The notes: generated by a model from the letters alone, not told the origin. Shown: positions 36,238-53,428, counted from the first letter of the stretch. The stretch: 64,000 bases of DNA from Candidatus Moraniibacteriota bacterium (GCA_030645735.1 JAUSNP010000006.1:132095-196094), one strand, 5' to 3'. Program-made: numbers and translations.

Positions 36238-36337
36238 TGTCATCCTGAACTTTATTCAGGATCTACTCTGCGTTTCACTGAGATAAATTTAGATTAATGA
36301 TACAGTGAGCAGATTCCGGGTCAAGCCCGGAATGACA
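36238..36337. repeat. Element family B, copy 2 (orientation 1)
   Basis: TGTCATCCTGAAC...TTCAGGAT and ATTCCGGGTCAAGCCCGGAATGACA hairpins; ends 11 nt before the ATG of the next gene. Confidence 0.75.
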
Positions 36338-36348
36338 GCACTATACTT

Positions 36349-37431
36349 ATGCGAATTTTATTTATTTCCCACGCTTATCCGCCTACTGTTGGTGGCGTGG
36401 AAAACCAGAATTTTGAACTTTCCACTTGGCTAGGAGAAATTGCGGAAGTCAAAACCATTGCCAACGGACGAGGCAAGAAGTTTTTGCCATTTTGGATGCC
36501 CTACGCTCTCGTAAAGAGTCTTTTTCTGATGCCAAAATATGATGTCATCCTTTTGGGCAATGCCCTCTTAGCACACATGGGCTGGATATTGAAAATCATT
36601 TATAGAAAACCTGTAGTTGTTGTAGTGCATGGATTGGATTTAACTTTCCAGAATTGGTGCTACCAAAAATTCTGGGTCAATTTTTTCATCCCCAAAATGG
36701 ACAAACTTGTTTGTGTTGGCAACGAAACAGTTCGCGTAGCCAAAGAAAAAGGCATCGCGGAAGACAAATTGGTTTTCATTCCCAATGGCGTCAACACCAA
36801 CAAATTTCAGTCGGAATATAATTGGTCAGAAATTAAAAAAATCTTTGGACGAAAACTGGAAAGCAAAAAAGTTTTGATGACTTCTGGCAGACTGGCCAGA
36901 AGAAAAGGCGTGGCTTGGTTTGTGCGCAATGTGATGCCGAAGTTGCCGGAAAATATTTTGTATATCGTGGCAGGTGACGGCGCTGATCGAGAAAATATTG
37001 AGCAAGCTATCACAGAAAACAATTTATCCGAACGCGTGAAAATGATTGGCTACATGGGCGACCCGGTGCGCGACATGCTTTTCCACACTTGCGATCTTTT
37101 CATTCAACCCAACATCAAAGTGGCTGGTGATATGGAAGGCTTTGGCTTGTCAGTTATTGAAGCAGCTTTTTGTGGCATTCCAGTCATTGCTTCGCGTTTG
37201 GAAGGCTTGCAAGACGCCATCAAAGATGGTCAAGACGGCTTTTTGATTGAACCAGAAGACGCGTCAGGCTATGTCACAAAAATCAATGAACTTTTGTCAG
37301 ATGACACAGCCCGCAAAGCTTTTGGACAACAAGCACGACAATTTGTCATTGATAATTTTGGTTGGGAAAAGATTGCGCAAAAATATTTAGATGAAATTGA
37401 GAAAGTGATCAATAAGAAAAATATCACATAA
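36349..37431 (+). CDS. GT4-family glycosyltransferase
   Basis: N-terminal HAYPPTVGGVE and C-terminal EGFGLSVIEA motifs. Confidence 0.8.
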   Translation: MRILFISHAYPPTVGGVENQNFELSTWLGEIAEVKTIANGRGKKFLPFWMPYALVKSLFLMPKYDVILLGNALLAHMGWILKIIYRKPVVVVVHGLDLTFQNWCYQKFWVNFFIPKMDKLVCVGNETVRVAKEKGIAEDKLVFIPNGVNTNKFQSEYNWSEIKKIFGRKLESKKVLMTSGRLARRKGVAWFVRNVMPKLPENILYIVAGDGADRENIEQAITENNLSERVKMIGYMGDPVRDMLFHTCDLFIQPNIKVAGDMEGFGLSVIEAAFCGIPVIASRLEGLQDAIKDGQDGFLIEPEDASGYVTKINELLSDDTARKAFGQQARQFVIDNFGWEKIAQKYLDEIEKVINKKNIT

Positions 37432-37435
37432 ACTC

Positions 37436-37535
37436 TGTCATTCCGGCCTTGAGCCGGAATCTACTCACCGTATCGTGAATCTAAATTTAATTCAGTGAAA
37501 TGTAAAATAGATCCCGGGTCAAGCCCGGGATGACA
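37436..37535. repeat. Element family B, copy 3 (orientation 2)
   Basis: TGTCATTCCGGCCTTGAGCCGGAATCT...GATCCCGGGTCAAGCCCGGGATGACA; fills the gap from 4 nt after the stop to 10 nt before the next start. Confidence 0.8.
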
Positions 37536-37545
37536 TTACAAAAAT

Positions 37546-39411
37546 ATGCTACAAACAATCGGCAATCAAATATTATTTTATCTCACATTAGTTTTTGTGT
37601 TATTTATTCCGGGCTACTCTTTGCTTTTGACGATTTTTGGTCGCAGCAAAACATTGAGCGTTTTGGAAAAATTCATAATTTCCTTTGGCCTGAGCATCAT
37701 CAGCGTGGATTTTATTTTTTTCGCCTTTTCCAAAGCCGATATTGCCATCACTCGCCTCTCATCTATCATCGGCATTGCAGCTTTCATTCTGATTTGTCTA
37801 GCTATTTTCAAATTTAGAAAATTCTCCGATTCAGTCGAAGACAATAAATTATTTTCTTTTTCCAAAAATCAATTCATTCTCATTCTGCTTTTGATTTTTT
37901 TGAGCATTTTTATTAAAACTGCCTATTTGACTGACACCGTTTTTCCGACCGCCACTGACATGGGACATCATATGTATTGGGCCAAATGGATGGTGGAAAA
38001 TCATCAGTTGCCAACCTATGACGGTATGCCAGATTTCATCATCGGTGAACACATCATTTTTGCCACCGTTGCCACCTTGAGTGGTGCCAACTTCTTCTCA
38101 GCTTTCCCAATTGTGATTCTGTTTTTAGTAAATTTGCTCAGTATCTTGATGGTTTTCATTTTGACTTTGCGCATTTTCAAAGAAAAAAATGTAGCTATCT
38201 TGTCATTGCTATTCTTGGGAGTCCTGTATGCTGTGAGCTCACCCCAAGCCAAATTTGTCAGTGGTGGCGTAGTTGGCAATATTCTTGGCAATCTACTTTT
38301 GCCAATGTCGCTCTATTTTTATTATCGCGCTTTCAGTTTTTTTGAAGCTGATGAAAAAGTTTCCAGTGAATCAAAAACATTTTTGGCCTTGGCCTTTTTC
38401 TCAACTTTCGGATTGCTCTACACGCACCATTTGACGGCTTTTATATTCCTATTTATTTTTGCTTTAATCGTTGCAATTTTCTTAATTTTAAATTTTAAGA
38501 ATTTAAAAAATATTTTTGCCTCACTATTCAAAATTGTTTTTTCTCCGCAGGTCCTAGCCACATTGGCCATCTGTTTTATTTTTTTCTTTTGGGTTTTCAC
38601 GCCCAACTACATAAAAGGTGGCGCCGTGGACACCGCTGTGGGTGCGCCCAGCAAAGAAACTCGCGCTGGCCTCACCATTGCCAACTTGCGTTCTTCCATT
38701 GGCGAAGCGCGCATCGCCTTGGGCTTCCTAGGACTTCTAGTTTTAGCCATCGGATTTAAGCGTAAAAATTTTGGCTACACTATTATCGCCGCTTGGGCCA
38801 TTATGATTTTCATCATGTCCACCCAACCAAATCTCCTTTTAGTGAATCTACCCAGCAGTCGCATCGGCAACTATCTCTCCTATCCTTTCGCCATCCTCAG
38901 TGCCTACACATTTTATTTTGTTTTCAAAAACAAAACCAATCAATTTTTGAAAGTTAGTTTCATTGTCATCGCCACTTTTGTTTTGGTAGATGGAATTTCT
39001 GATTCGGCCTATAGCTTCAAAAACAAGGAAGACTTAAGTCCCCTTGCCCAAACATTCAACGCTTCAAATTATCTAGCCACACACACCACAACTGATGATG
39101 AGATTTTGAAAGACCACAACTACATCACCGCTGACTCTTGGATGAAAATCATCTTGATGCGCGGTTACAAATATCCACAATCCCGTGGCTACTTCAAGCG
39201 TTATGATGACCAAACCAAGCCACGCGAAATGTGCACCCTCAATATGATTTCCACACCCGACAGCCCAGAAGCCAAGACTTGTTTTGCTGACACCAACACC
39301 AATTTCATCGCCATCAATCCGAACTTTGATAGCGCGCAATTTTTGAAATTGAAAAATTTTGATCAAGTCTATTCCAGCACTGGCATAAATATTTATTACA
39401 AAAATAACTAA
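37546..39411 (+). CDS. Large polytopic membrane protein, probable GT-C-fold glycosyltransferase / polymerase
   Basis: About 13 TM helices in the N-terminal two-thirds, then a soluble C-terminal domain. Confidence 0.45.
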   Translation: MLQTIGNQILFYLTLVFVLFIPGYSLLLTIFGRSKTLSVLEKFIISFGLSIISVDFIFFAFSKADIAITRLSSIIGIAAFILICLAIFKFRKFSDSVEDNKLFSFSKNQFILILLLIFLSIFIKTAYLTDTVFPTATDMGHHMYWAKWMVENHQLPTYDGMPDFIIGEHIIFATVATLSGANFFSAFPIVILFLVNLLSILMVFILTLRIFKEKNVAILSLLFLGVLYAVSSPQAKFVSGGVVGNILGNLLLPMSLYFYYRAFSFFEADEKVSSESKTFLALAFFSTFGLLYTHHLTAFIFLFIFALIVAIFLILNFKNLKNIFASLFKIVFSPQVLATLAICFIFFFWVFTPNYIKGGAVDTAVGAPSKETRAGLTIANLRSSIGEARIALGFLGLLVLAIGFKRKNFGYTIIAAWAIMIFIMSTQPNLLLVNLPSSRIGNYLSYPFAILSAYTFYFVFKNKTNQFLKVSFIVIATFVLVDGISDSAYSFKNKEDLSPLAQTFNASNYLATHTTTDDEILKDHNYITADSWMKIILMRGYKYPQSRGYFKRYDDQTKPREMCTLNMISTPDSPEAKTCFADTNTNFIAINPNFDSAQFLKLKNFDQVYSSTGINIYYKNN

Positions 39412-39412
39412 T

Positions 39413-39766
39413 ATGCGACAACAAACTAAAATCATTTTGTTTTTCATTGTTCTCTTCTTAGCCAGCTCGGTCTATCTTTTTTCCATTGATTCCAGATACA
39501 ATGACCCGACATACAACAAGAATTGGTATGCGCTATCGTTTGTTGAACCAAAATCAGACAGTTTGAATTTCGCTATTGAAAATTTTTCTGCCAACATAAA
39601 TTTCCATTGGGAGCTTTTAGCTGGCAAAGAAAAAGTTGAGACTGGTAATGTTGAAATTCAAACGGGAGAGAAAAAAGAGATTAGCCTGTCCCAAATAGCC
39701 GCTGATCAAAAAATGACCGTGCGTGTTTCTTCTGGAGATGCTACACAAGAAATTTATAAAAACTAA
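39413..39766 (+). CDS. Small signal-anchored hypothetical protein
   Basis: N-terminal TM; translationally coupled to the upstream gene. Confidence 0.35.
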   Translation: MRQQTKIILFFIVLFLASSVYLFSIDSRYNDPTYNKNWYALSFVEPKSDSLNFAIENFSANINFHWELLAGKEKVETGNVEIQTGEKKEISLSQIAADQKMTVRVSSGDATQEIYKN

Positions 39767-39773
39767 CATAGCC

Positions 39774-39874
39774 TGTCATCCCGGGCTTGACCCGGGATCT
39801 ACTCTGCGTTTCACTGAATTAAATTTAGATTCGCAATTACAGTGAGCAGATTCCGGCTCAAGGCCGGAATGACA
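39774..39874. repeat. Element family B, copy 4 (orientation 1)
   Basis: TGTCATCCCGGGCTTGACCCGGGATCT...AGATTCCGGCTCAAGGCCGGAATGACA. Confidence 0.8.
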
Positions 39875-39875
39875 A

Positions 39876-41015
39876 TTGAAAAATATGTCCAACCCTAAAA
39901 AAATATTATTAGTCACTCGCCCAATCGCCCCACCTTGGGATGAGGCCTCTAAGAATTTTGCTTTTTATCTCGCCAAAAGTGTAGCTAATTTTGATTTGAA
40001 TCTTTTGACTAATGGCCTGATCGCTGAAATTCCCAATGCTCAACAAAAACCCATTTACACCTCCAATGATTTCAGCTATTTTCAAAAACTGCGCCTCATC
40101 AAACATTTGCGCAAAATGAAAAATGATTTTGACATCTTGCATTATATTTTCACACCCACCAAACAAAATTCTTTTTTATTAAAACATTTTGTGAATGCTG
40201 GCAAAAAGAAAACTACCAAAATCATCCAAACCATAGCAACTTTGCGCGAAGATTTGTATTCTGATTCGGATCTGAAAGATTTGATGTTTGGTGATTTAAT
40301 TATCACCTATTCTGATTATGCCAAAAATAAACTCGCTTCTTTGGGATTTAAAAATGTGCAACGAGTCTATCCAGGAATTGATTTGCAATATTATTCAGCA
40401 AAACCAAAAAATATAGAAATACTTCAACAGCTTGGAATTACACAAGAAGATTTTGTAGTGACCTATCCCGGAGAATATATTCGCTTAGGCGCAACAGATG
40501 ACATCGTGCGAATGATCACAGAAAACGTTGAGGTCTTTAGAGAAAAAAAGATCAAAATATTTTTAGCCTGTCGACTGAAAAATGACAGTGAAGCTATCAA
40601 AAAAAGAGATGCGGTGCTTGAAGAACTAAAAAAACATAACGCGATGGACGTAGCTATTGTCGCTGATACATTTTCTGATATGTCAGCTATTTATAATTTG
40701 TCAGATATTGTTATTTTCCCTGTCCAAAATATGCGTGGCAAGTTTGATGTGCCTTTGGCCGCAGTTGAACCGATGGCCTGTGAAAAGCCCGTGATTGTTT
40801 CAGACCTACCGATTCTCAAGGAGTTTGCCAATGAAACCAATTCTGTCACAATTGAAAAAGGCAATTCACAACAATTGGCTGATGCAATTTTTGATCTCTA
40901 CAACAATCCAGAAAAACGAGCGACTCTCGGCAAAGGCGGACGCAAATTCTGTGAAGAAAATTTCGACATCAAAAAAGTCGCCTCAATCTACGAAAAAATT
41001 TACACCGAACTATAA
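39876..41015 (+). CDS. GT4-family glycosyltransferase; possibly starts at the ATG at 39885
   Basis: C-terminal GT-B domain with ...PMACEKPVIVSD... Confidence 0.7.
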   Translation: MKNMSNPKKILLVTRPIAPPWDEASKNFAFYLAKSVANFDLNLLTNGLIAEIPNAQQKPIYTSNDFSYFQKLRLIKHLRKMKNDFDILHYIFTPTKQNSFLLKHFVNAGKKKTTKIIQTIATLREDLYSDSDLKDLMFGDLIITYSDYAKNKLASLGFKNVQRVYPGIDLQYYSAKPKNIEILQQLGITQEDFVVTYPGEYIRLGATDDIVRMITENVEVFREKKIKIFLACRLKNDSEAIKKRDAVLEELKKHNAMDVAIVADTFSDMSAIYNLSDIVIFPVQNMRGKFDVPLAAVEPMACEKPVIVSDLPILKEFANETNSVTIEKGNSQQLADAIFDLYNNPEKRATLGKGGRKFCEENFDIKKVASIYEKIYTEL

Positions 41016-41055
41016 TTTTTATTTTTAATTCTTAATTCGTCTTATCAGTCCTATT

Positions 41056-42549
41056 ATGACTTATTCAATCAACAACCTCTCCCCTCACAAAAAACAATTT
41101 CAAACTCCTGCCATGCAAGTGCCGGCTATTTTGCATGTCTCTGATGATTTGATGCCCAATGATGCCACTTTGGCCGAAATTGAAGGCGTAGCCTCTGATC
41201 CGCATGCTTTTCATCATGTGGCTGCCATGTCTGACGTGCACAGCAAAAAGGGCCGTAAGAACCCAACTGGCACCGTGATGGCCTCAGAGGCTCATCTTTT
41301 GCCCCAAATCAATGACACCGCCCCCAATTGTGGCATGCGCTTTTTGAAGACCAATCTCACCGACGCAGATTTGACCCCAGAAAACATCGACCGACTTTTT
41401 CAAGAATTGATTGGCGTCATCCCAACCAAGACATACGTTGGCACCAAAGTGCCCTATTCTTTAATCATAGACATCTGTCGCAAAGGCATCGCACCCGTGC
41501 GGGAATTTTTTGGCTCTCGCACCAAAAATGAAATTGAAAACGCTTTTGAAGGTGGCAACTTTTTTTCCGAAATTCCCACTGAAAAAGAAATCCTCAATGC
41601 CATTCCAAAGTTATTTTTGCACATCGGACAATATCGCCTAGGTATCCTCGGCGCTGCCGGCAATCACTTTTTGGATTTGATGAAAATCACCGAAATTGAA
41701 AACCAAGAGATTGCCACAAAATTCGGATTGCAAACCGGACAATATATTTTCTTGTTGCATACCGGCTCAGGACTCCTAGGACAATACGCGTCATACTTAT
41801 ACACTCCAAAAAGGAAAGAGCATTTGAGCCAAAGAATTATTTTGGAAATTGGCAAGTTTTTATTTAAAACTGATTATAAAAAAGAATTCAAAGCGCTGTG
41901 GAAAAAAATTGAAAGTTTCAAGGACAGCAAAGAATATTTTGCCTACGATGACCAAAGTTTGGAAGGCAAACTCTTTTTGACTTCGCACAATGCCGCTGCC
42001 AATCAAGGCTATGCCAATCGTTCAATTTTGAATCATCAGTTGGATTTGGCAATTGAAAAAGTTCTTGGCAAAAATCCAGAGCTGGATATGCTTTATGACA
42101 TGCCCCATGTTTTTGTGCATCGCGAAAAGAATCATTTTGGCAAAGATGTTTGGATTCACCGCAATGGCACCGTGAGGGCTAATGGTCCAGCGCGTATGAA
42201 TCATCCATTGTTCTCCCAAACTGGAGAGCCAGTTTTCATTCCCTCTTCCATGAGCACGCCCGCCTACATTTGCGCCGGTACTGACGCCAATGAATCTAGT
42301 TTTTTCTCAGCCAGCCATGGCACCGGTCGTCGCAAAGATCCTTTGGCAGATGCGACGCACAACAAAGCTGAACTTTTTGACAAACTCAAACAACGTCAAG
42401 TCAAACTTTTCAATGCCAAATCCAAAGGCGTGGTCATGCAAGACAGTTCATACTACAAAGATGTCGAGGAAGTTATCGCTGGCATGGAAGCCAACCAAAT
42501 CGTCAAAGCCGTGGCCAAGATGGAACCAGTGGCGGTTTTAATGTACTAG
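41056..42549 (+). CDS. rtcB: RNA-splicing ligase RtcB
   Basis: DVHSKKG, APNCGMRF and SHGTGRR motifs, which include the metal-binding His/Cys of RtcB. Confidence 0.85.
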   Translation: MTYSINNLSPHKKQFQTPAMQVPAILHVSDDLMPNDATLAEIEGVASDPHAFHHVAAMSDVHSKKGRKNPTGTVMASEAHLLPQINDTAPNCGMRFLKTNLTDADLTPENIDRLFQELIGVIPTKTYVGTKVPYSLIIDICRKGIAPVREFFGSRTKNEIENAFEGGNFFSEIPTEKEILNAIPKLFLHIGQYRLGILGAAGNHFLDLMKITEIENQEIATKFGLQTGQYIFLLHTGSGLLGQYASYLYTPKRKEHLSQRIILEIGKFLFKTDYKKEFKALWKKIESFKDSKEYFAYDDQSLEGKLFLTSHNAAANQGYANRSILNHQLDLAIEKVLGKNPELDMLYDMPHVFVHREKNHFGKDVWIHRNGTVRANGPARMNHPLFSQTGEPVFIPSSMSTPAYICAGTDANESSFFSASHGTGRRKDPLADATHNKAELFDKLKQRQVKLFNAKSKGVVMQDSSYYKDVEEVIAGMEANQIVKAVAKMEPVAVLMY

Positions 42550-42573
42550 AAGTTTCATAAAAAATTAGAATTG

Positions 42574-42605
42574 GGCGGGAATGTAGGTTCACACTCCCGC
42601 TTTTT
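42574..42605 (+). terminator. Rho-independent terminator after rtcB
   Basis: GCGGGA-loop-TCCCGC plus TTTTT. Confidence 0.6.
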
Positions 42606-42624
42606 ACACAAGATGAATGCATCC

Positions 42625-42819
42625 TTATAGCCCAAACTGCCTTCTAAGGTCGCTACTTGTGTCCGGTTTAAATCTTGGGGCTTTTCTTGTCACAGTCTTG
42701 TGCTGCTCTATGTCTCCGCCATGCAAAATGGTACAGCCTAGACATATTCCACCCGCAGTTATACAAGATTTTGGATGACCACAAAATGCTAAAGCAACTT
42801 TCTTCGCTTTTCGTGCCAT
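42625..42819 (-). CDS. Small Cys-rich protein (64 aa; C13, C19, C26, C29)
   Basis: Strong GAGGGGG RBS 5 nt upstream; CGHPKSC...CLGC. Confidence 0.45.
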   Translation of the reverse strand: MARKAKKVALAFCGHPKSCITAGGICLGCTILHGGDIEQHKTVTRKAPRFKPDTSSDLRRQFGL

Positions 42820-42835
42820 AATTCAACCCCCTCAT

Positions 42836-43054
42836 TCAGATTCTTAACTTGGCCGAACTCATGTCACATTGCCCATACATATTGCAGACAGCAATTTCTT
42901 GCCCGCAATTATCGCAGCTAGTCACCCAAAACATAACAGCATGTATGAGTGTAGTGCAGGCTGGGCAATTGAAGTTTTTATTTCCACCGACCTTAATCCT
43001 TATTATTGGTTTCTTAGCATTTTCTTTCTCTTCTTTAACATCCCAAAAGGACAT
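42836..43054 (-). CDS. Small zinc-ribbon-like protein (72 aa; CPAC...CDNC plus two further Cys)
   Basis: GGAGG RBS; tandem with the preceding small gene. Confidence 0.45.
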   Translation of the reverse strand: MSFWDVKEEKENAKKPIIRIKVGGNKNFNCPACTTLIHAVMFWVTSCDNCGQEIAVCNMYGQCDMSSAKLRI

Positions 43055-43245
43055 GGCGCGCCTCCATATTGAATTGTGATTAGAGCTAGTTTTTTACATT
43101 TACCATCACCCAATTCTAATTTTTCATTTTATTGTAAAAGTTCTTATTATCAAACTAGCCCATTCTTGTAATAAATGCAAGTACTCCAGACTGGCTCCCC
43201 ACCCTATTTTATGCTATGATTTTGATGTAATAAGTTAAATATTTT

Positions 43246-43872
43246 ATGAAAATCATCACTATTTCCGGCGTAGATGGCTCAGGCAAATCGACCCAAATCA
43301 AACTTTTGCAAGCATATTTAGAATCGCAAGGTCAGCGGGTTTTTTATTTCCATGCCATCGAGTTTGGTCTAGCCACAAAACTAGCCAATTTCAAGAAAAA
43401 ATATTGCCTGATTTGCAAAATCAAAGGCCTATGTCAAATCAAGCCCACCGAAGCCAAAAGCGTCATCAAGGCCAATTGGTTGCAAATCCAACTGCGCAAA
43501 ATCTTCCTACGCATCGACATCTGCCGTTTCAAAAAACTCCTCAAAAAATTAGAAAAGGAGAAATTCGACTATCTCCTGAGTGATCGATTCTTTTACGATA
43601 CAGTCATAAATATTCACTATCTTGAAAATTCTGACATTAAAAATTCGGCCTTGATTCGAAATTCGAAATTCGAAATTCAGAATTCTTTTTATATGGACAT
43701 ATCTCCTGAACAAATCATGCAACGTGAAAGAAAGCCCGATCAAGGCCTTGAATATTTGCAAAAAAAGACTGGGTTATTCAAACAAAAAATTACTGATTGG
43801 AATATGCAAATCATTGACGCCTCAGAAAATAAAGAGATAGTTTTTGATAAAATAAAAAAGGGCCTAAGCTAA
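43246..43872 (+). CDS. tmk: Thymidylate kinase with in-frame heptamer-repeat insert
   Basis: ISGVDGSGKSTQ P-loop and DRFFYDT (DRY-like) motif. Confidence 0.7.
   Translation: MKIITISGVDGSGKSTQIKLLQAYLESQGQRVFYFHAIEFGLATKLANFKKKYCLICKIKGLCQIKPTEAKSVIKANWLQIQLRKIFLRIDICRFKKLLKKLEKEKFDYLLSDRFFYDTVINIHYLENSDIKNSALIRNSKFEIQNSFYMDISPEQIMQRERKPDQGLEYLQKKTGLFKQKITDWNMQIIDASENKEIVFDKIKKGLS
43655..43687. repeat. Tandem heptamer (TTCGAAA)x3 plus degenerate units inside tmk, in-frame (encodes IRNSKFEIQNS)
   Basis: attcgaaattcgaaattcgaaattcagaattc; CG every 7 nt. Confidence 0.75.
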
Positions 43873-43912
43873 AAGCGCCTAGGCCCATAAACCCAAATAT
43901 TCACGTTGTGAA

Positions 43913-44074
43913 TTATCTAAAGATTTGGGTTAAATCACCGCCACCAAGTGGATCACTGACGCCTCGCCGGCGAGTGGTCACATCACGAGAAGGTTTTTTT
44001 CGCGATACTCCACAAGGACATTGATAGGTACTGCCTTTGAGTTTCATTTTTTCTCCACAATCTGGACAAGTCAT
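43913..44074 (-). CDS. Unlisted small zinc-ribbon protein (53 aa: MTCPDCGEKMKLKGSTYQCPCG...)
   Basis: GGAGG RBS 6 nt upstream of the ATG; CxxC...CxC arrangement; too short for the supplied ORF track. Confidence 0.35.
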   Translation of the reverse strand: MTCPDCGEKMKLKGSTYQCPCGVSRKKPSRDVTTRRRGVSDPLGGGDLTQIFR

Positions 44075-44149: not shown

Positions 44150-45674
44150 TATGTCAATTAGCATCGCCAAATCAGCCCTCTGGGTCACTGTTTCAGAAAT
44201 CATCTTCAACTTGTCAGGATTTATCATTCACAGCGTTCTGGGGCGCGTTTTGGGTCCGGCAGACTATGGCAGATATGGCCTGATTGTGACTTTGACCACC
44301 ATGGTCATCGTTCTGATTGGCAATGGCATCCCAACTGCTATGGCGAAATACATCAGCGAGATTTTCGAGTCAGATCCACAAATGGTTCTCAAAATAAAAA
44401 AGCAAGCCATCAAATTGCAAATGCTCATCGTCGGATCAATTACGGTAATTTTCTATCTTTCTGCCGGTCTGATTTCCAAGGCTTTGGGCGATCCAAGCTT
44501 GGCGCCACTCTTCCGCTTTTCAACTTTGATTATCCCAGCCTTCGCTGCGGCATCTTTCTATTTTTCCTACTACACTGGCTTGCACAAATTCAACACCCAA
44601 GCTACCCTCAAAACTATTCGCTCTGTGATGCGCATTGGTTTTGTGGTCGGCTTGGCTTTTATTTTCGGTCTCAAGGGTTCCATCTCCGGCTATGTCATTG
44701 CGCCTTTTTCCGTTTTTGCAATTGCTTTTCTGATTGATAAATTCAAAATCTCTCCAGAACTAAAAAAACAATCTGCATTAATTGCATCCACTAAAATTGA
44801 CTTCGATTGGAAAAAATTGGTCAACTATGGCTGGCAAGTAGTGATTTTCTTTTTAGCCTATGAGCTACTCATCAGCATTGATCTATATATGGTCAAAGCG
44901 ATTTTGCGCGATGATGTTTTGACTGGAATCTACAATGCTTCACTCACCGTCGGACGCATCCCCTACTACATTTTCTATGCCATGACGGTTTTTCTATTGC
45001 CAATGATGTCAAAATCCACCGCGCAAAACAATCATGGCGAAACAACTAGAATCCTTGCTCAAGCATTGCGCATAATTTTGATTCTGCTCGTGCCAATGAT
45101 CATCTTGCTTTCCATCTTTGCTTTGCCAACACTACAATTGCTATATGGCCAAAAATACATAGCGGGAGCTGTGCCAATGTCAGTCCTCGTGTTTGGCGTC
45201 GGATTTTTGACACTTTTTTATGTCTTGAGTTTCGCTATGAACGGCGCTGGCAAAACCAAACTTGTGATGTGGATTGCTTCAATCGGACTGGCCATCAACT
45301 CGATTTTGAATTATTTTTTTATCCACAAATATGGCATCCTCGGCTCGGCCATCGCCACTTCCGTCGCTTCATTTGTCATCATGGTCATTATGCTCTACTA
45401 TCTGAAACGTGATTTCGGCGTTGCATACAAGATGAGAAGTGTTCTGCGCGTGGCCCTAGCTGGATTCCATATTTATATTTTCTCCCTAATCCTTCCACTT
45501 AGTCCCAAACTATTTATCCTTGAAACTATTCTTCTTTTGGGTGTTTATTTTGGTTTCCTTTGGATTTTGCGAGAAATCAAAAAGGAGGACCTTGCAATCC
45601 TCCAAAATATTATTCGTCGCAAGAAAGTCATTGAAGTTGAGCAAGAATTATCTGGAACGGAACCAAGCGCGTAA
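44150..45674 (+). CDS. Wzx-like polysaccharide flippase (MOP superfamily)
   Basis: About 14 TM helices; start taken at MSISIAK rather than the longer annotated ORF. Confidence 0.65.
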
Positions 45675-45686
45675 ACTTTTCATAGC

Positions 45687-45787
45687 TGTCATTCCGGCCT
45701 TGAGCCGGAATCTACTTACTGTTATCGCGAATCTAAATTTATCTTAGTGAAAGATAAAGAAGATCCCGGGTCAAGCCCGGGATGACA
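45687..45787. repeat. Element family B, copy 5 (orientation 2)
   Basis: TGTCATTCCGGCCTTGAGCCGGAATCT...GATCCCGGGTCAAGCCCGGGATGACA. Confidence 0.8.
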
Positions 45788-45812
45788 AAAGCCTGCGAAG
45801 CCATTCAGTAAT

Positions 45813-47339
45813 TTAATTTCCCCAACGATACACACCAATGTCACCGCGCACCGCGATGGCATTTATTTTTTCCAAGTTTTGCTCAACATATTCTTGCACC
45901 GCTTCAGAAATATAATCTTTGTCATTGCCCGAAAAAATAAACCAGCCCGATGGATTTTCACTCATGATTTTTTGCAACTCTGCTAGGCTGAATTTTTCTT
46001 GTGACAATTCTCCACCAAAATCAAAGGTTGCAACCTTTTGTCCACTCCAATAATAGTTGCGGAAATCCCGAGTGATTAAAACATCAGTCGGTTTTTTGTT
46101 TTTCTTGAAATAGGTGAAAACACTGCGATAGTTTGGATTTTCTGAACGCGATGTTTGATTGTAAACATTGTTTTCTTGAAAGAAATAAGCATAGTTTGGC
46201 AAAATCAAGAAAGCAATGATACTCGCGATATAAAAAGGTTTTTTCTTGTATTGTAATAGACTATCTTGAAAGAAAACGGCCACTGAATAAATTCCCGCCG
46301 CAATCAAAATCATTTCAAAAGATTGGATGAAGAAAATATATTGCTCGCCGACATTTCTGCGCCACATGAAAATTGCGAATAGCAATGGCACAAAAAATGA
46401 AATTGACAGCCACAAAGCCTCCTTGCCCAGAAATCTGGTTTTGACCAAATAATAAATTCCCAACAGCGCAAACGCAATCGCAATCAGCACATCATTATAA
46501 TCACGCAAAACAATGTTTAGATAACTGAAATGTGTCGTGAAAAAAACTAAAGTTACCCAAAATTTATCTATCAAGTTTTTGGCAAAAATTTCAACCAAAA
46601 CAAATCCGGCCACAGCCATGGCCAGCATCACCGCATATTTATTTTGCAATGATTTTGTTTTGCGATAAACACTCACCAAACGCACCGCAAGATACACTGC
46701 GACAACAATAGCAATGTTCGCGGTGAGCTGATGCAAATGAAAACTCAGCGCTCCCAGCGCCAGCATCGGCACCAAATACATCAAATTCAATCCGTATTCA
46801 ACATTAATTTTTTTTATCCAAGCCACATCGCCCTCATATTTTCTTTCCAAGAATTTGAAAGTTGACCATGAAAACAGCAGGAAGATTGGAAAAAACATAG
46901 CATACATCCGCACATGCCGATCAAAAATGATGCCCGAAACGCTCAGAGCGAACAAAGTTGCGCTCAAAAGGCCAACGGCACGTTTTTTGGTGAAACTAGT
47001 TGCCACTAGATACATCGCCACCATAGAAATCATGCCCCAAAAAACACTCACCGCGCGAGCTGTGGCTTCAGTAGGTGGAAAGAATTTGTATAGTTGCGCC
47101 ATTTGCCAGCGATAGGCCCAAGCTCGCTCATCACTGGGGTCATTCACTCTCTCAGCCGGAGCGCCCAAATTGAAATCCCATGCATGCCAATCGCCCGTTT
47201 TGAAATAGCCATAACTGGCATTCACATCCAAAAACTCATCCGCCACAAACGAAGAATTGCCCAATTTATATATGCGCAAAAATCCACCCAACAAGATTAT
47301 TAGAAACAGGATAGCAAAGAACCTTTTTTTGTCTAACAT
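45813..47339 (-). CDS. GT-C-fold membrane glycosyltransferase (ArnT/PMT-like, GT39/83 family)
   Basis: Periplasmic-loop DEFLD motif after the first TM; about 12 TM helices. Confidence 0.55.
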   Translation of the reverse strand: MLDKKRFFAILFLIILLGGFLRIYKLGNSSFVADEFLDVNASYGYFKTGDWHAWDFNLGAPAERVNDPSDERAWAYRWQMAQLYKFFPPTEATARAVSVFWGMISMVAMYLVATSFTKKRAVGLLSATLFALSVSGIIFDRHVRMYAMFFPIFLLFSWSTFKFLERKYEGDVAWIKKINVEYGLNLMYLVPMLALGALSFHLHQLTANIAIVVAVYLAVRLVSVYRKTKSLQNKYAVMLAMAVAGFVLVEIFAKNLIDKFWVTLVFFTTHFSYLNIVLRDYNDVLIAIAFALLGIYYLVKTRFLGKEALWLSISFFVPLLFAIFMWRRNVGEQYIFFIQSFEMILIAAGIYSVAVFFQDSLLQYKKKPFYIASIIAFLILPNYAYFFQENNVYNQTSRSENPNYRSVFTYFKKNKKPTDVLITRDFRNYYWSGQKVATFDFGGELSQEKFSLAELQKIMSENPSGWFIFSGNDKDYISEAVQEYVEQNLEKINAIAVRGDIGVYRWGN

Positions 47340-47357
47340 TTTTATATAAAATAATAA

Positions 47358-49115
47358 TTATTCTTCATCACCAGTTTCAGATAAGATTTCCTCCCAACGA
47401 AAACGCACTGGCACATTTGGTCCACTTTGTGGCTTGCCCTTGGGTCTGAATTCCTGACTGTCAGTGGTAATAAATTCTTTTTTCGGTATCAAATTCATCA
47501 CCAAAAGCGTACCGAATTCTTTTTGGCCTACAATATCGAATTTTCCAGTATAATCGTCTAGTTCAGCATCCAAGTTTGCTCCGGATGGATAGATTAAGAA
47601 ATAATTACTATCACGATATATTTTATTGGTGCGCATATCATCGCGCGGAATCTGACGTTGCTCTAGGTTATATAAAAAAGCTCGGCGATAGAAAGGATCA
47701 CTATCCAAATAAATTGGGAAACCATTCTTTTTGTGAAATTCTTCCAAGTAGTCAGTGATGATTTCTTGCTGAAGCATAGTCACTCGCTCTTGTTCCTTAA
47801 GAATCCTGTCAGTTTTAATTTTGAAATTTTCAAATGGCGCCCTACTCAATTCTGAGAATCTAACTTGGGTTTCGCGCAAATTGGAAAACAAAATAATGGC
47901 CACAATCGCAATCAACACAGCCAACGCGGTTCGCCTATTTTTGATAATCTGGCCAAAAAATTGCAACATCAATCCCAAAAATATAAACGGCAATCCCGCC
48001 ACTATCAAGAAAAATCTGGGCGCAAAATCATAGGCAATCGGTGTGAAAGCTACAAAAGAAATGCCGAACCACAAACAAACCAAAATGACAAAATCTCGCT
48101 GTGGACTGTTTTCCTTGCGCCAAATTCTTATCAAATTATACGCCAGCAAGATTATGCCAGCCGAAAACAAAATCACCGACAAAATTCCCATCGGCGTGCC
48201 ATTCTTGCAATCTTCATCACAAACCAAAACCGCGGGAACAACTTTGTGGTTAACTTTGGGCAACTCAGCTTCCTGATAACTGCTCACCAACAACAAATAA
48301 CTCAGGGAGTTTTCTTTATAGTTTCGAACGGCTTTTTCAAAAAACGAATTGTCATTTTTGGTGGATTTTTTAGTGAAAACTTTAGCAAATTGTTTGATAT
48401 TCGCTCCGCCTGTGCCAAAATCATTCACAATTGGCGGGATATATAGAACTACAAAAATCAAGACTGCCGCAAACCAATGAATCAATCTCAATTTTGGTCG
48501 CTTAATTAGAAGATATACCATCGTCACTGCTGGCACTACCAAAAACGCCACGAAATGCAGTTGGGTGGTGATAGCCATTGCGCCTGATGCCAATGCTACC
48601 CACCAACCCTTCCTTTTTTCATTGGGATCAACTGTGCGCAACAGCGCATAAAAAGTCAGCAGAATGAAAAATGGCAAATTGTTCGGATTCCACGCAAAAC
48701 GCGAATACATAATCAAAAACAGCGAAGTGGAAAAAACCGCCAAAAGTGCCACGGATATTTTTCGATCAAAATATCTGCGCACAAAAAGATAAAACACTGG
48801 CAGGGTCAAAATAGAAAAAATCAAATTGACTGTCGCAATGCCTGGCGGGGTGTTGCCAAAAATCTTGGCGCTTACATATTCAAAATAATAAAAAGCTGGT
48901 CCGAGTCGCAAAAATGAACCCGCCGCCTTGGGCCCCAAAAGTGGCAAATTCGATGCCCCTTCCTCCACGGCCAAATCAATCACAATGGCGTCGCGAGATT
49001 GATCCAATTCAAAATGCAACCAATCGGAAAAATGATAGACGCGCAGAAAGGTTCCCAGCGCCAAAATAGCCAAAATCAACCCAACAAACCAATACTTTTT
49101 GAAATAGTTATTCAC
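47358..49115 (-). CDS. GT-C-fold membrane glycosyltransferase (ArnT/PMT-like)
   Basis: N-terminal TM followed by D-x-D-containing loop; polytopic. Confidence 0.55.
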   Translation of the reverse strand: MNNYFKKYWFVGLILAILALGTFLRVYHFSDWLHFELDQSRDAIVIDLAVEEGASNLPLLGPKAAGSFLRLGPAFYYFEYVSAKIFGNTPPGIATVNLIFSILTLPVFYLFVRRYFDRKISVALLAVFSTSLFLIMYSRFAWNPNNLPFFILLTFYALLRTVDPNEKRKGWWVALASGAMAITTQLHFVAFLVVPAVTMVYLLIKRPKLRLIHWFAAVLIFVVLYIPPIVNDFGTGGANIKQFAKVFTKKSTKNDNSFFEKAVRNYKENSLSYLLLVSSYQEAELPKVNHKVVPAVLVCDEDCKNGTPMGILSVILFSAGIILLAYNLIRIWRKENSPQRDFVILVCLWFGISFVAFTPIAYDFAPRFFLIVAGLPFIFLGLMLQFFGQIIKNRRTALAVLIAIVAIILFSNLRETQVRFSELSRAPFENFKIKTDRILKEQERVTMLQQEIITDYLEEFHKKNGFPIYLDSDPFYRRAFLYNLEQRQIPRDDMRTNKIYRDSNYFLIYPSGANLDAELDDYTGKFDIVGQKEFGTLLVMNLIPKKEFITTDSQEFRPKGKPQSGPNVPVRFRWEEILSETGDEE

Positions 49116-49198
49116 TTTGTTTTTTCCTTAATTTATAGTAAAATAAGCCTTATGAGCTACTTCTATTTTATTACATAATCCATAACAAATCAAACGCC

Positions 49199-51475
49199 AT
49201 GTCAAATCAATTGCGAGGGTTCCTGAGAGACAAAACCAACCTACTTTTTTTGTTTTTATCCGCCGTATTAGCTGTTAATTCTCTATTTTTTCTTGCTTCT
49301 CAAGAAGCTGTCTTCCATTTATTTCTAAATTCACTCAGTCATAACTTAACCTACTTTGTGTATCTGTCGATATCCGCCGTTGGAATTGGTTTTTATTTTT
49401 TCAAAAACAAATTCAATCTACTGAATCTTCTGCAAAAAATTCTAATTCTATATTTGCCCACGGAAATTGTTTTCATATATGGCCTGCAAAAAACCACCGA
49501 ACTCAGTCCGAACATTGGCATAGCCAGCGCCATCTATACTCTAGCGCTAGCATTGTTTATCGTTTTGCATGGTTTGAATAGCGACAAACTGACCCTAATT
49601 GAAAATACTCAGCCAAAAACAAAAAGCTCCGTGCTAATTGCAATCGCAATTTTTTCCATTATGTTGACTTCGCTGTTATTCGGCAATTACCATATTGGCA
49701 AAATGGCTATCGTTGATGAACCGCTCTGGACCTTTGACCGCATTCCGGATTTCTGGAAAAATGTCGGCGAAAGAGATTGGTACAACAGTCGGGTCAGTGA
49801 CAAACCAGGGTTGACTGTCGCCATGCTGTCTGGCACTGGTCTTTTTTTCGAAAAAAATCCGCAATATTTTGAAAATATGCCGTGGGTTAACAATGAAATC
49901 ATATCTGAAAAAGCTATTGAAAATTTCAACTATGCTTTCCGCTTTCCAATTTGGCTTTTTGTCATCCTATCACTGCCGATTTTTTATCTCTTGCTCAAAA
50001 AACTAATCGGGCAATCCAGCGCGCTCCTGTCCATTTCCTTTATTGGACTTTCTCCAATTATGCTTGGCAATGCCAGAATCATCAATCCTGATTCAATTTT
50101 GTGGATTTTTGTGTCACTTTCTATCATAACCTACTTGATTTATCTCAAGACTGTTCGCAAGGCCGATCTTTTTTTGAGCGCGCTTTTTTTGAGCCTTGGC
50201 ATTCTCACCAAATATACTGCCAACATTCTCTATTTCTTTTTTCTCGCCCTCATCTTCGCTGAATATATTTTCAACCACGAAAAATATGTCAAAGAATCTT
50301 TCTATGTCTATCTCAAAAAACATCTGCTAAATTATGGCCTGCTCGTTGCATTGTCTTTTGCGATTTTTTATGCCTGTTATCCAGGTGTCTGGGAAAAACC
50401 AAGCCGAGTCTTGATTGGCACAATTTACAGCCAAGCTTTCGAACCACTCTGGCCTTTCTTCGCCAGTGTCCTAGGATTTATCTTATTAGATCTTTTGGCT
50501 CTGAAAAGTTTCCTAATGAGCGCGATTGTTAATTTTTTTGTGAAATTCAAACGAACATTGTTTGTTGGCATCAGCAGTGTTTTTCTGGCATCTATCCTAG
50601 CCACCCTCGCCAATGTCTATCTCGGCATGAAATTTTTTGACTTTGAAAATATCCTCGCTTCTCCCAAATCGTCTTTTGCCGCCACTAGCGCGCTTGGTTT
50701 TTTCTTGTCAAATTTCTATCCAATGATTTTTGGAATTTCTATTGTTGCTCTACTAACAATAATCGTCTTTCTAATTTTATCCTTGCAGAATAAAACTAAA
50801 TTAAACCAACAATCTGTCCTGACTGCATTCTATCTGATGCTATTTATCATCGCCTACTATCTTGGCGCCGTGGCATCGCATGTCGCTTCCATCATTCGTT
50901 ATCAAATCGTCATCTTTCCTATCATTTTCATCATTGCGGGCATTGCTGGCAGTGAGCTTTTTCGAATTTTTATTTTGCAGAAAAATGATGGCGCTCAAAA
51001 AATATTCCTCAAGCAAATTATATTTTTTGTTGGATTGTTAATTGTGCTTTTCGCTTCCCTGTGGCAAAGCAAGCCATTCTATATGAGCTATGCTTCGGTT
51101 CTATTGCCCGAAAAATATTATCTCGATATCAAGGATATGGGCGAAGGCAGTTATGAAGCCGCTCATTATCTCAATTCTTTGCCTAACGCAAAAGAATTGA
51201 ACATTTGGACTGACAAGCAAGGCGTCTGCGTTTTCTTTGTTGGCAAGTGTCATTCGGCGCTTTCGGCCAAAACTTTCGCTACTCGCAAAATAGATTATTT
51301 CGTTGTTTCTTCTGGTCGGAAAAGTCGCACTACCAAAATGAGTAGCATGATTTTCATCAATGGCGCCTCATTTCTGGATATCTACAACAGTGAAAAATTT
51401 GTACAAAAAATAGAACTGGGTGGTCGACCTAATAATTTCGTTAAAATTGTTGAAACTAATTCCATCAAAAAGTAA
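49199..51475 (+). CDS. GT-C-fold membrane glycosyltransferase (PMT_2/ArnT-like), paralog A
   Basis: VDEPLW...DKPGLTVAM loop; C-terminal soluble domain GVCVFFVGKC shared with the next gene. Confidence 0.55.
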   Translation: MSNQLRGFLRDKTNLLFLFLSAVLAVNSLFFLASQEAVFHLFLNSLSHNLTYFVYLSISAVGIGFYFFKNKFNLLNLLQKILILYLPTEIVFIYGLQKTTELSPNIGIASAIYTLALALFIVLHGLNSDKLTLIENTQPKTKSSVLIAIAIFSIMLTSLLFGNYHIGKMAIVDEPLWTFDRIPDFWKNVGERDWYNSRVSDKPGLTVAMLSGTGLFFEKNPQYFENMPWVNNEIISEKAIENFNYAFRFPIWLFVILSLPIFYLLLKKLIGQSSALLSISFIGLSPIMLGNARIINPDSILWIFVSLSIITYLIYLKTVRKADLFLSALFLSLGILTKYTANILYFFFLALIFAEYIFNHEKYVKESFYVYLKKHLLNYGLLVALSFAIFYACYPGVWEKPSRVLIGTIYSQAFEPLWPFFASVLGFILLDLLALKSFLMSAIVNFFVKFKRTLFVGISSVFLASILATLANVYLGMKFFDFENILASPKSSFAATSALGFFLSNFYPMIFGISIVALLTIIVFLILSLQNKTKLNQQSVLTAFYLMLFIIAYYLGAVASHVASIIRYQIVIFPIIFIIAGIAGSELFRIFILQKNDGAQKIFLKQIIFFVGLLIVLFASLWQSKPFYMSYASVLLPEKYYLDIKDMGEGSYEAAHYLNSLPNAKELNIWTDKQGVCVFFVGKCHSALSAKTFATRKIDYFVVSSGRKSRTTKMSSMIFINGASFLDIYNSEKFVQKIELGGRPNNFVKIVETNSIKK

Positions 51476-51476
51476 T

Positions 51477-53315
51477 ATGCCAAATAAAAAAATATCTATC
51501 CTATTTCTACTTATCTTGTCTGTGGGACTTTTTTTTGCCTTTGGTTTTCATCATCTGACTAAATTTGTGACGGCCGATGAACATTATTGGACCTATGAAC
51601 GGATTCCGCAATATTGGCAGGCTCTAGGTGATTTCAATCTCAAAAAAACCTTCATCAACGACAAACCCGGCATCACTGTGGCCATGTTTTCAGGTGCTGG
51701 ACTCCTCGCAGAAAAAGATCCAGCTAATCATACCGCCAAAGTTGATGCGGATCTGCGAACATTTGATGTTGCCAGAACTGAAAATATCAATTTTGCTTTT
51801 CGCTTGCCAATTCTAATTATCAATAGCCTTCTATTGCTATATTTATTTTGGATTATCAAAAAGGTCACGGGCAATGTTTGGATTGCTTTGTGGAGCGTCA
51901 TTTTGATGGCACTTTCCCCCATTCTCATTGGCATCTCGCAAATCATCAATCCTGATGCTTTGTTCTGGTCATTCAGCACGGCGGGGATTTTTTCCTATCT
52001 AGCTGTTCTGAAACATAATCAGAAAAAATTTGTTTTTCTGACAGCGCTTTTTGTCGGCCTAGCTATGCTTTCCAAATACACTGCCAACATTCTTCTGCCA
52101 TTTTTCTTTTTCAATATATTTTTCTACTACCTATTTATCTGCGAAAAATACACTCGGGCAGAAATCAAAAAATATTTCATCTCACAAATTTTTAATTTGG
52201 CAGCCATTGCCATTGGCGCGCTCGCTGTCATTGCCATCTTTCTACCCGCTGTGATCGTCAAACCAATCTACCTTTATCGCTTGACCCTGGGCTTCGGAGC
52301 TATGCAACCAATCATCTGGATAATGTCTGTTATTTCCCTAATATTTTTATTTGATCAATTTGCTTTCAAAAGCGCTCTTTCGTTTTGGCTAAAAAAATAT
52401 TCCCAAACACTCATCGCCATTTCAAAAATTGTACTGGCTCTGGTTTTTTCAATTTTTGTCATCCTGATTGTCGGACGCAATGTGATTCAACATTGGCAAC
52501 TCTTCGAGGTGGTGCCATTTGATGTGAAGGAATTGAAATATATTGATGATTATGGTTATTTCATCACCTTGTGGGAAAAATTTCTTTTTGAATTCAATCC
52601 ACTGGTTTTTTCCATCACCCCCATCGCCTTGCTAGCCGCGCTATTTATTTGGCTCGAAACCTTTTTTACTAAAAAATCATCTGGGGCTTTCTTGGTTATT
52701 TCTGCCACATTTTTTATTCTGATTTATTACATCGCCTCAGTTATTATGGGCATCACCTCTATTGTTCGCTACAGCATTATCCTCTATCCAATGATTGCTT
52801 TTTTGGGTGGCCTCGGACTTTGGCAAATGACACAAAAAATCAAAATCAAGAATGTTCTCAATTTGAACATTGCCATCACGCTTGCCTTGATAATTTTTTC
52901 TTCGGCTATTGTGTTTTCCATCAAGCCTTTCTATTTCAACTACACCAGTTCGCTGTTGCCTAAAAAGGATTTGATTTCCGATGCTTGGGGTTATGGCGGT
53001 TATGAAGCCACCCAATATCTCAACGCCATGCCCGATGCCAAAAACATTACTGTCTGGGCAGACTACTACGGTGTCTGTGAATTTTTTGTTGGCAAATGCA
53101 TCACCGACTACAATTTGGAAACTGGCAATTATTCAATCGATTACTATGTCATGACGCGTCGCGGACAAATCCGATACATGCAAAACAGCGCCAAATGGAT
53201 TGATCGACCCAACGGCATCCGAGTTGAATCATACTACGCAGATCCCAATCCAATCTGGAAAATTGAAATTGGAAACCGCCCAGACAATTTTATTAAGATT
53301 GTGAAAAAATACTAA
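51477..53315 (+). CDS. GT-C-fold membrane glycosyltransferase, paralog B (tandem duplicate of the previous gene)
   Basis: ADEHYW...DKPGITVAM and GVCEFFVGKC blocks parallel to paralog A; start moved to the ATG after the upstream stop. Confidence 0.55.
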   Translation: MPNKKISILFLLILSVGLFFAFGFHHLTKFVTADEHYWTYERIPQYWQALGDFNLKKTFINDKPGITVAMFSGAGLLAEKDPANHTAKVDADLRTFDVARTENINFAFRLPILIINSLLLLYLFWIIKKVTGNVWIALWSVILMALSPILIGISQIINPDALFWSFSTAGIFSYLAVLKHNQKKFVFLTALFVGLAMLSKYTANILLPFFFFNIFFYYLFICEKYTRAEIKKYFISQIFNLAAIAIGALAVIAIFLPAVIVKPIYLYRLTLGFGAMQPIIWIMSVISLIFLFDQFAFKSALSFWLKKYSQTLIAISKIVLALVFSIFVILIVGRNVIQHWQLFEVVPFDVKELKYIDDYGYFITLWEKFLFEFNPLVFSITPIALLAALFIWLETFFTKKSSGAFLVISATFFILIYYIASVIMGITSIVRYSIILYPMIAFLGGLGLWQMTQKIKIKNVLNLNIAITLALIIFSSAIVFSIKPFYFNYTSSLLPKKDLISDAWGYGGYEATQYLNAMPDAKNITVWADYYGVCEFFVGKCITDYNLETGNYSIDYYVMTRRGQIRYMQNSAKWIDRPNGIRVESYYADPNPIWKIEIGNRPDNFIKIVKKY

Positions 53316-53329
53316 CAGAATATATATAT

Positions 53330-53428
53330 TGTCATTCCGGCCTTGAGCCGGAATCTGCTTACTGTAATCGTGAAATTTAATTTATTGCATGAACCAAAAG
53401 AAGATCCCGGGTCAAGCCCGGGATGACA
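53330..53428. repeat. Element family B, copy 6 (orientation 2)
   Basis: Same two hairpins and TGTCAT/ATGACA ends. Confidence 0.8.

Follow-up and report, generated by a model that had tools for sequence, protein, structure and literature searches.

TGTC-tagged hairpin dimers in the surface-glycan locus of a Moranbacteria-like bacterium: probable selfish repeats of a described kind with a putative link to Ssn-type nucleases

What are the double-hairpin elements of about 100 bp that lie in the gaps between genes across the surface-glycan locus of a Candidatus Moraniibacteriota bacterium, and how did they come to be there? The question is raised by a stretch of 64,000 nucleotides (GCA_030645735.1 JAUSNP010000006.1:132095-196094; hereafter the window), in which a reading of the sequence (the original prediction) had picked out six copies and proposed that they could be terminators or mRNA stabilizers resembling repetitive extragenic palindromes (REPs) and bacterial interspersed mosaic elements (BIMEs), carriers of translation-initiation signals, or recombination substrates for the shuffling of glycosyltransferase cassettes. 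Analysis of the window, of related contigs and of loci from other phyla shows that the elements are a real and recently active family, and they are probably best explained as non-autonomous, selfish, head-to-head heterodimers of the REP or Ssn-related motif (SRM) kind, the units of which are DNA hairpins and the spread of which into the spacers and 5' untranslated regions (UTRs) of the glycan locus may be linked to a GIY-YIG nuclease of the Ssn type.

Anatomy of the copies and the unit under selection

Re-reading of the sequence bore out all six copies at the coordinates originally given (Table 1), each with TGTCAT at its start and ATGACA at its end and each comprising two perfect hairpins with 8-bp stems, the loops of which are 5 nt long in 11 of 12 hairpins and 4 nt long in one. 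A hairpin search of the window (GTCAT with a perfect 8-bp stem and a 4-5-nt loop) detected exactly 12 modules, which make up these six inverted pairs, and a repeat finder retrieved the same copies in both orientations. Three copies (37436, 45687, and 53330, named by their first position) run one way and two of the ~100-bp copies (36238 and 39774) the other, as had been claimed. Mean column identity in an alignment of the six is 83%, and the 45687 copy is 88% complementary to the 39774 copy. A degenerate module pattern was matched four times in the window against 0.04 matches expected, far above chance, and the published SRM pattern, discussed below, five times against 0.14 expected in shuffles. 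The two hairpin sequences originally quoted for the family are present, but the stems of the window come in five or more variants (ATTCCGGC, ATTCCGGG, ATCCCGGG, ATCCTGAA, and ATTCCCG-). Copy counts refer throughout to the 64-kb window, which contains these six copies and three elements of a family-A type.

Each module spans ~27 nt and has the layout T-GTC-[AT + 6 variable bases]-[loop, mostly CTTGA]-[6 bases + AT]-C-T, and a dimer consists of two modules in inverted arrangement with their tags outward, separated by a spacer of ~46 nt (range about 26-47), which is 26 nt in the short copy. The TGTC tag and a perfect 8-bp stem beginning with AT are found in 12/12 window modules; all of these, as well as 32/32 diverse modules, have GTC in front of the palindrome and C behind it, and in the diverse modules the first pairs AU and UA are also invariant. 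As its tail, each of 11/12 modules has CT and then A, G or T, while the remaining one (31399) has CCA. Five of the six copies are clear heterodimers, and this property was examined more widely in 151 modules recovered by exact pattern from the window and 118 fetched loci, with partners located solely via an ATGAC close by. Perfect 8/8 hairpins are formed by 65 of the 94 partners so located, 55 of them with a stem unlike that of the mate; the figure for control GTCAT sites is ~4%. In an alignment of 32 diverse modules with 5-nt loops, which were picked by eye so that the alignment leans toward structure, 97.7% of cells are paired and two-sided changes occur in five of the eight pairs (55 cells) with no one-sided G-U change, that is, covariation is of the Watson-Crick kind only.

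Folded as RNA, the whole elements yield one long and very stable hairpin (z-scores -4.7 to -9.0). This long hairpin was rejected as the selected structure, since the ends of most dimers elsewhere and those of the 36238 copy (ATCCTGAA and ATTCCGGG) cannot pair with each other, each of the latter being a perfect hairpin by itself. The selected unit is therefore each ~27-nt module as a DNA hairpin, not the hairpin of the whole element, and the missing wobble pairs and the palindromes, perfect on either strand, point to DNA rather than RNA as the level at which selection acts.

These results bear on the classical view of REPs and BIMEs, in which the hairpins would be selected at the RNA level as terminators, 3'-end protectors or processing points of a glycan operon. 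Placement and folding are in its favor: in addition to the stable folds, five of the six copies lie 4-14 nt past a stop codon, four are found between same-direction genes and two between convergent genes while none is found between divergent genes, a placement also reported by Di Nocera et al. (2013; PMC3733652), and in three copies the ATCCCGGG hairpin, when read on the minus strand, precedes a T-rich stretch and has a weak terminator-like score. Against it, both orientations occur between same-direction genes, and the 36238 copy lies in a 5' UTR, that of a GT4 gene, directly after a promoter-like site conserved in relatives; a 5' UTR behind a promoter-like site is also the position of the family-A-type element at 34110, which is situated between the terminator and promoter-like region of ugd and a small open reading frame (ORF) upstream of a GT2 gene. 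Canonical terminators adjoin the elements, one at 34036-34061 beside the 34110 element and another, a separate bidirectional A6-hairpin-T6 structure at 53435-53465, within the gap of the 53330 copy. Furthermore, relatives have the same operon without the elements, stems without G-U intermediates form perfect palindromes on both strands, and the nuclease SsnA ignores RNA (PMC11893778). A primary terminator or mRNA-stabilizer role is thus unlikely, although these indications are weak ones; a secondary, co-opted effect on RNA is possible. An Rfam search of the whole window gave no match at the gathering score, and a scan of the window for tRNA and tmRNA detected nothing.

Regarding translation, the claim that four copies end shortly before a start codon held at a measured distance of 10-14 nt, and that of a spacer almost filled by the element applies to four copies but not to the 36238 copy, which lies in a 351-nt gap, nor to the 53330 copy, which shares its gap with the terminator. 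The idea that the elements carry translation-initiation signals had drawn on the missing Shine-Dalgarno sequence and was not upheld: a Shine-Dalgarno-like motif within 20 nt upstream was found for only 5/52 long ORFs of the window, the leaders being A/T-rich, and the organism seems mostly to initiate translation without it, so that its absence says nothing about the elements; relatives, moreover, have the same genes without an element behind spacers of 4-16 nt.

Filled and empty sites in related contigs

Annotations of GT4 homologs name Parcubacteria, Moranbacteria or Patescibacteria, and the host is a Parcubacteria/Moranbacteria-like bacterium of the candidate phyla radiation (CPR). In the contig L120 (Logan SRR16297629), the GT4 protein of which is 96% identical, the 36238 and 37436 copies are both lacking, with a spacer of 8 nt at the 37436 site and a promoter that leads directly to the start codon at the 36238 site. 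The contigs L121-L127 (GT4 71-83% identical) contain no module in up to 21 kb and lack each copy that they cover, the spacers at the 37436 and 39774 sites being 2-16 nt long. Site by site, that of the 36238 copy is empty in L120, L121, L122, and L125, that of the 37436 copy is a spacer of just 4-16 nt in L120, L123, and L125 and module-free in L121 and L122, and that of the 39774 copy is empty in L122, L123, and L125 (spacers 2-9 nt); for the 31344 and 45687 copies no modules were found in L122 and L125. L120 in turn has a single TGTC module (2197-2221), in frame within a DUF1616/DUF6541 gene, where it adds ~8 codons in a variable loop; the window does not have this module. The strain of the window itself is also present in SRR13727526. 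Since syntenic relatives have empty sites and L120 has an insertion of its own, the elements have been gained independently in very close relatives, and the gain is recent. The empty sites, together with the presence of the module in many phyla, support the mobile family of the original prediction over a simple local regulatory palindrome.

No target-site duplication accompanies the elements, the flank repeats of 66 dimers being the same as in a shuffled control; the inverted repeat itself runs one base past the ends (Y before TGTCAT and R after ATGACA). Bacterial miniature inverted-repeat transposable elements (MITEs), such as the Neisseria Correia and Rickettsia RPE-1 elements, have target-site duplications and are derived from DDE insertion sequences. 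Ordinary MITEs, that is, internally deleted copies of such an insertion sequence moved in trans by cut and paste via their terminal inverted repeats, resemble the elements in that they are small and multicopy, have inverted-repeat ends (here of 27 nt, with TG...CA termini, in dimers of ~60-110 bp), are sometimes read through in frame, can affect the expression of neighboring genes, and vary in presence between strains. Neither the duplication nor a parent DDE insertion sequence was seen here, however, and the ends are mostly unlike in stem sequence yet each self-complementary, which is unexpected for inverted repeats bound by a transposase. Single modules also occur and insert, and the intervals of 0.5-4 kb between distant inverted module pairs contain ordinary genes, with no transposase and no autonomous element, nor is there a transposase among the ~50 window proteins. 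An origin as ordinary MITEs is accordingly very unlikely.

Annotation of these ~50 proteins (Pfam) divides the window into housekeeping genes (0-24 kb) and a surface-glycan locus (25-61 kb) with GT2, GT4, LytR-CpsA-Psr, Wzy_C, Ugd, a flippase, several PMT-family proteins and others, and no transposase, Y1 transposase, GIY-YIG protein, integrase or insertion sequence was detected among them. All seven intergenic TGTC-type dimers (7/7) lie within 31.3-53.4 kb, in the glycan locus (Fisher p ~1e-4). This clustering, and the fact that in Neisseria a phage recombinase targets dRS3, a repeat overrepresented close to variable surface genes (PMC11893778), would suit passive landing pads or recombination sites without mobility of their own, either as targets of an integrase or an IS110-type element or as homology patches for swaps of glycosyltransferase cassettes. 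As the primary explanation this is very unlikely: sites are empty in close relatives with the flanking genes unchanged, so that it is the repeats themselves that arrive, relatives have one and the same gene order whether or not they carry the elements, no rearrangement breakpoint was seen at them, and the window has no integrase or insertion sequence. A landing-pad role could nevertheless be an added consequence of the presence of the repeats.

Distribution, described families and Ssn-type nucleases

The 27-mer TGTCATYCCGGSYYTGASCCGGRATCT is present in at least 118 loci, the hosts of which, among the matches listed, include CPR groups, Bacteroidota, Fibrobacter, Alpha-, Gamma- and Deltaproteobacteria, an actinomycete, Treponema (Spirochaetes), Melainabacteria, Ignavibacteria and others. 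Dimers of 60-110 bp, the two ends of which differ, prevail among the fetched loci. A BLAST comparison of the window with these 118 loci yielded no long match, so that none of them is from the same genome. Of two patterns for the 46-nt spacer of the subfamily itself, the first had no match in metagenome contigs and the second six chance matches (one unrelated AT-rich locus). Among 2.9 million viral contigs the module pattern occurred in only one, so phages are not an obvious vehicle. That contig, IMGVR_UViG_3300017650_000210, contains nine modules in 14.6 kb and looks like a piece of a chromosome or prophage rather than the genome of a free phage. An alphaproteobacterial metagenome-assembled genome (locus L016, 4370-6200) has dense arrays of nearly identical 69-70-bp heterodimers with repeated flanks over ~2 kb, a BIME-like cluster built from this type of module. 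No report of this hairpin family in CPR/Patescibacteria was found in the literature searched.

The six elements belong to an already described kind, the CGTC/TGTC-tagged REP or SRM heterodimers, and the REP/BIME-like character suggested for them finds its counterpart in the CGTC REPs, the published definition of which the modules fit in tag, stem, loop and arrangement as head-to-head heterodimers. CGTC REPs have the tag CGTC, often TGTC (a CCTC variant is accepted), a stem of 8-9 bp that opens with an A-T and then a T-A pair, a loop that measures 4 nt in CGTC-1 and 5 nt in CGTC-2 to CGTC-4, and a short unpaired tail with the consensus CCA (Di Nocera et al., 2013; PMC3733652). They are a superfamily with high copy number and genome-wide spread, occur mainly as head-to-head dimers, frequently heterodimers, with conserved spacers of 20-100 bp, and are placed after stop codons of same-direction or convergent genes, with some in-frame intragenic copies; CGTC-1 is equated with Neisseria dRS3 and Rickettsia RPE-6, and RPE-4 also falls within the CGTC-1/CGTC-2 families (PMC3733652). 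Neither a dedicated transposase nor a flanked RAYT, the transposase of GTAG-tagged REPs, was found for them, and the hosts listed belong to five phyla, of which CPR is not one (PMC3733652). The tag-outward arrangement was equated with "head-to-head" via the statement in the same paper that the doublets known as REPINs are head-to-head dimers (PMC3733652). The elements of the window share the tag, the 8-bp stem starting with AT, the 4- or 5-nt loop, heterodimers, spacer size, placement after stop codons and occasional in-frame copies, while their host phylum is new relative to the five.

Neisseria dRS3 (consensus ATTCCC-N8-GGGAAT) leads to the second description of the same hairpin, the Neisseria NTS (CGTCATTCCCGCGMAVGCGGGAATCYRG), which has been generalized to SRMs (Chenal et al., 2025; PMC11893778). 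In the 31344 copy, the left module (TGTCATTCCCGTGAAAACGGGAATCTAG) agrees exactly with the dRS3 consensus and departs from the NTS consensus at 3/28 positions, two of them a compensating pair. NTS is the target of SsnA, a single-domain GIY-YIG nuclease of 94 amino acids that binds the NTS hairpin and cuts a few nucleotides upstream, acting only on single-stranded DNA and on one strand only, not on RNA or double-stranded DNA; cleavage and binding depend critically on the bases in front of the palindrome and on the C behind it, and ssn genes (cd10448) are typically flanked by the motifs (PMC11893778). Chenal et al. raised the hypothesis that NTS-ssnA-NTS might be a mobile unit that has become domesticated, in the manner of RAYT and REPs, and described the clustering of NTS around surface-protein genes; a role of NTS and Ssn in natural transformation was shown in N. 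meningitidis only (PMC11893778). The likeness to the present elements lies in the same hairpin, the invariant GTC before and C after the palindrome and the clustering near genes for surface structures.

REPINs are doublets of GTAG-tagged REPs that are moved by RAYT, a domesticated Y1 (HUH) tyrosine transposase. In apparent working the two systems are alike, with a tagged hairpin acting as single-stranded DNA, inverted doublets that spread, no target-site duplication, and, in other lineages, a repeat-flanked single-copy enzyme gene. That the elements are themselves REPINs moved by RAYT is nonetheless highly improbable, since the tag is (C/T)GTC and not GTAG, no RAYT is flanked by CGTC REPs according to Di Nocera et al. 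(PMC3733652), no Y1_Tnp domain was found among the ~50 window proteins, and the gene flanked by modules, both here and in Chenal et al. (PMC11893778), encodes a GIY-YIG nuclease rather than an HUH Y1 transposase.

Such genes were encountered in three of the 118 loci (L073, L101, and L111), as ORFs of ~95-112 amino acids beside or between modules (Pfam PF01541, E 1e-14 to 1e-18). L111 has a module-ssn-module unit, and short dimers nearby share its sub-terminal sequence, as would be expected of deletion derivatives. Two Ssn proteins that recur in many metagenomes each have one conserved context with modules on both sides, in which they resemble single-copy RAYTs; the flanks are full heterodimers in Treponema and module arrays in the Chitinophagaceae locus. 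In Treponema-like gut metagenome contigs (L129-L138), an Ssn-type GIY-YIG gene at 2501-2782 has TGTCAT heterodimers on both sides and is located inside a type I restriction-modification operon, between hsdM/ORF6N and hsdS, in the same way in ten samples.

The probable explanation of the elements as selfish heterodimers can thus be put as follows. Selfish palindromes would have spread within a CPR lineage into the very short spacers and 5' UTRs of a surface-glycan locus, the selected unit being the module, with its (C/T)GTC tag, an 8-bp Watson-Crick stem starting from AT, a loop of 4-5 nt and then C. By analogy with Neisseria and Wolbachia, single-stranded modules may be recognized by the small single-domain nuclease Ssn (cd10448), presumably encoded by one gene elsewhere in the genome, which would account for the spread of the modules, for an effect on incoming single-stranded DNA, or for both, as RAYT does for REPINs. 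Any effects on transcription or translation of the glycan genes would then be a by-product of insertion.

Several points weigh against this explanation. One difference from NTS/SRM systems concerns the enzyme: ssn was found neither in the window (a search with hidden Markov models of ORFs down to 30 amino acids) nor in L120-L127, and neither ssn nor a RAYT nor a transposase was found in the 64-kb window or ~100 kb of related contigs, nor is an ssn gene carried by the fetched CPR loci. In a protein database, the best 120 of at least 7,999 matches to Ssn are from Treponema, Chitinophagaceae and unnamed sources, none of them labelled CPR. Since no ssn gene lies in the window or its relatives, the mobilizing enzyme for this genome is one that we infer, and dependence on an Ssn encoded elsewhere is suggested by the analogy above. 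We know of no covalent strand-transfer chemistry for GIY-YIG nucleases, and to our knowledge nobody has demonstrated transposition of SRMs by Ssn. Regarding the modules themselves, the tail is CT(A/G) in the window as opposed to the published consensus CCA, and the SRM pattern, a hand-made one after Chenal et al. (2025), HGTCWYN(0-2)YYVSBRHN(0-5)WNVSBRGN(0-2)RNCYNB, is matched by only 5/12 window modules, the other seven (those with the stems ATTCCGGC, ATTCCGGG, and ATCCTGAA and, in the short copy, the right-hand ATTCCCG module) sharing the architecture but missing at one position. Finally, the window copies are 8-25% divergent from each other although two of them postdate the split from the relative with the 96% identical GT4, a divergence for which a single recent burst does not account.

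Neighboring features and wider significance

The coordinates and neighbors of all copies are given in Table 1, together with the three elements of the family-A type, one of which (34110) was absent from the original prediction and has no counterpart in the corresponding spacer of L122. The proposal that family A and the double-hairpin elements form one superfamily is supported: the family-A ends, TGTC-ATTGC...GCAAT-CT, are laid out like those of the double-hairpin elements, and like ends occur in other phyla. The 6517 and 30528 copies are both read through in frame and yield the same peptide (TVIARRETTKQSHTDTQ...EIA.LLSVARND), which recalls the Rickettsia palindromic elements; the insert in Wzy_C sits in a loop the length of which varies among relatives.

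Table 1. Hairpin dimers, family-A-type elements and the promoter-like site of the window, with their neighbors
Feature	Coordinates	Strand	Length (bp)	Ends, stems or modules	Position and neighbors
Family-A element	6517..6623	+		ends TGTCATTGCGAG...CTCGCAATGACA	in frame within WecG/TagA glycosyltransferase gene 6107-6886
Family-A element	30528..30634	-		92% identical to the 6517 copy	in frame within Wzy_C gene 29710-31329(-)
Short dimer	31344..31423		80	left module TGTCATTCCCGTGAAAACGGGAATCT (4-nt loop); right module, reverse complement of TGTCATTCCCGACCTGATCGGGAATCC (5-nt loop)	between stop of GT4 gene 31430-32587(-) and start of Wzy_C gene 29710-31329(-)
Family-A-type element	34110..34210			TGTCAT...ATGACA; ends TGTC-ATTGCGAG...GGCAAT-C	
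Promoter-like site TTGAAA-17-TAGAAT	36191..36219	+			upstream of GT4; from a scan and kept in the alignment of relatives; context, not an element
Heterodimer	36238..36337	-	100	stems ATCCTGAA + ATTCCGGG	between conserved promoter and start of GT4 gene 36349-37431
Heterodimer	37436..37535	+	100	stems ATTCCGGC + ATCCCGGG	from GT4 stop (37431) to start of DUF1616/DUF6541 gene (37546)
Heterodimer	39774..39874	-	101	stems ATCCCGGG + ATTCCGGC	after 117-amino-acid ORF (end 39766), before GT1-family gene (start 39885)
Heterodimer	45687..45787	+	101		convergent pair: flippase (44151-45674, +) / 508-amino-acid membrane protein (45813-47339, -)
Heterodimer	53330..53428	+	99		convergent pair: PMT-family gene (51477-53315, +) / LPG_synthase_TM gene (53487-54428, -)

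Other repeats were also noted in the window. Short runs of the heptamers ACGTGGA/ACGTGAA and CGTTT(T/C)G are found at 4458-4486, 10034-10064, and 13186-13216 and also at 4550-4582, 6889-6921, and 13649-13681, some within the reading frames of PriA and GltX and others in spacers close to the genes for NifU and NifS. TTGTATCTTG is present in six copies at 61808-61947 with an irregular spacing of 14-41 nt and in one inverted copy near 2123; the array is intergenic, with a Fic-family gene (60670-61716, -) on one side and the next ORF (62063, +) on the other, and has an iteron- or operator-like look.

As to function, members of CPR reportedly rely on DNA uptake, and the clustering of the dimers at surface-glycan genes recalls that of NTS at surface-protein genes in Neisseria. 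Two wider, related readings, which we regard as doubtful, are that dimers bracketing individual glycosyltransferase genes might, with an Ssn-type nuclease, decide which glycan genes incoming DNA replaces, and that the gains and losses at strain level might be the trace of a transposition driven by a GIY-YIG nuclease. If true, the first of these readings would extend the NTS-gene-NTS effect of Neisseria to a distant phylum and to glycan loci.

For annotation, it matters that the elements make spacers of 100 nt and, in frame, lengthen or break ORFs; regulatory signals should not be read into them. CPR genomes are streamlined, roughly of the 1-Mb class, and the nine copies in 64 kb show that selfish repeats are tolerated even in genomes of this kind. 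The filled and empty sites seen in comparison with the relative that has a 96% identical GT4 are clean natural cases of recent gain and could help to settle the route by which CGTC REPs and SRMs spread, a question that dates from 2013.

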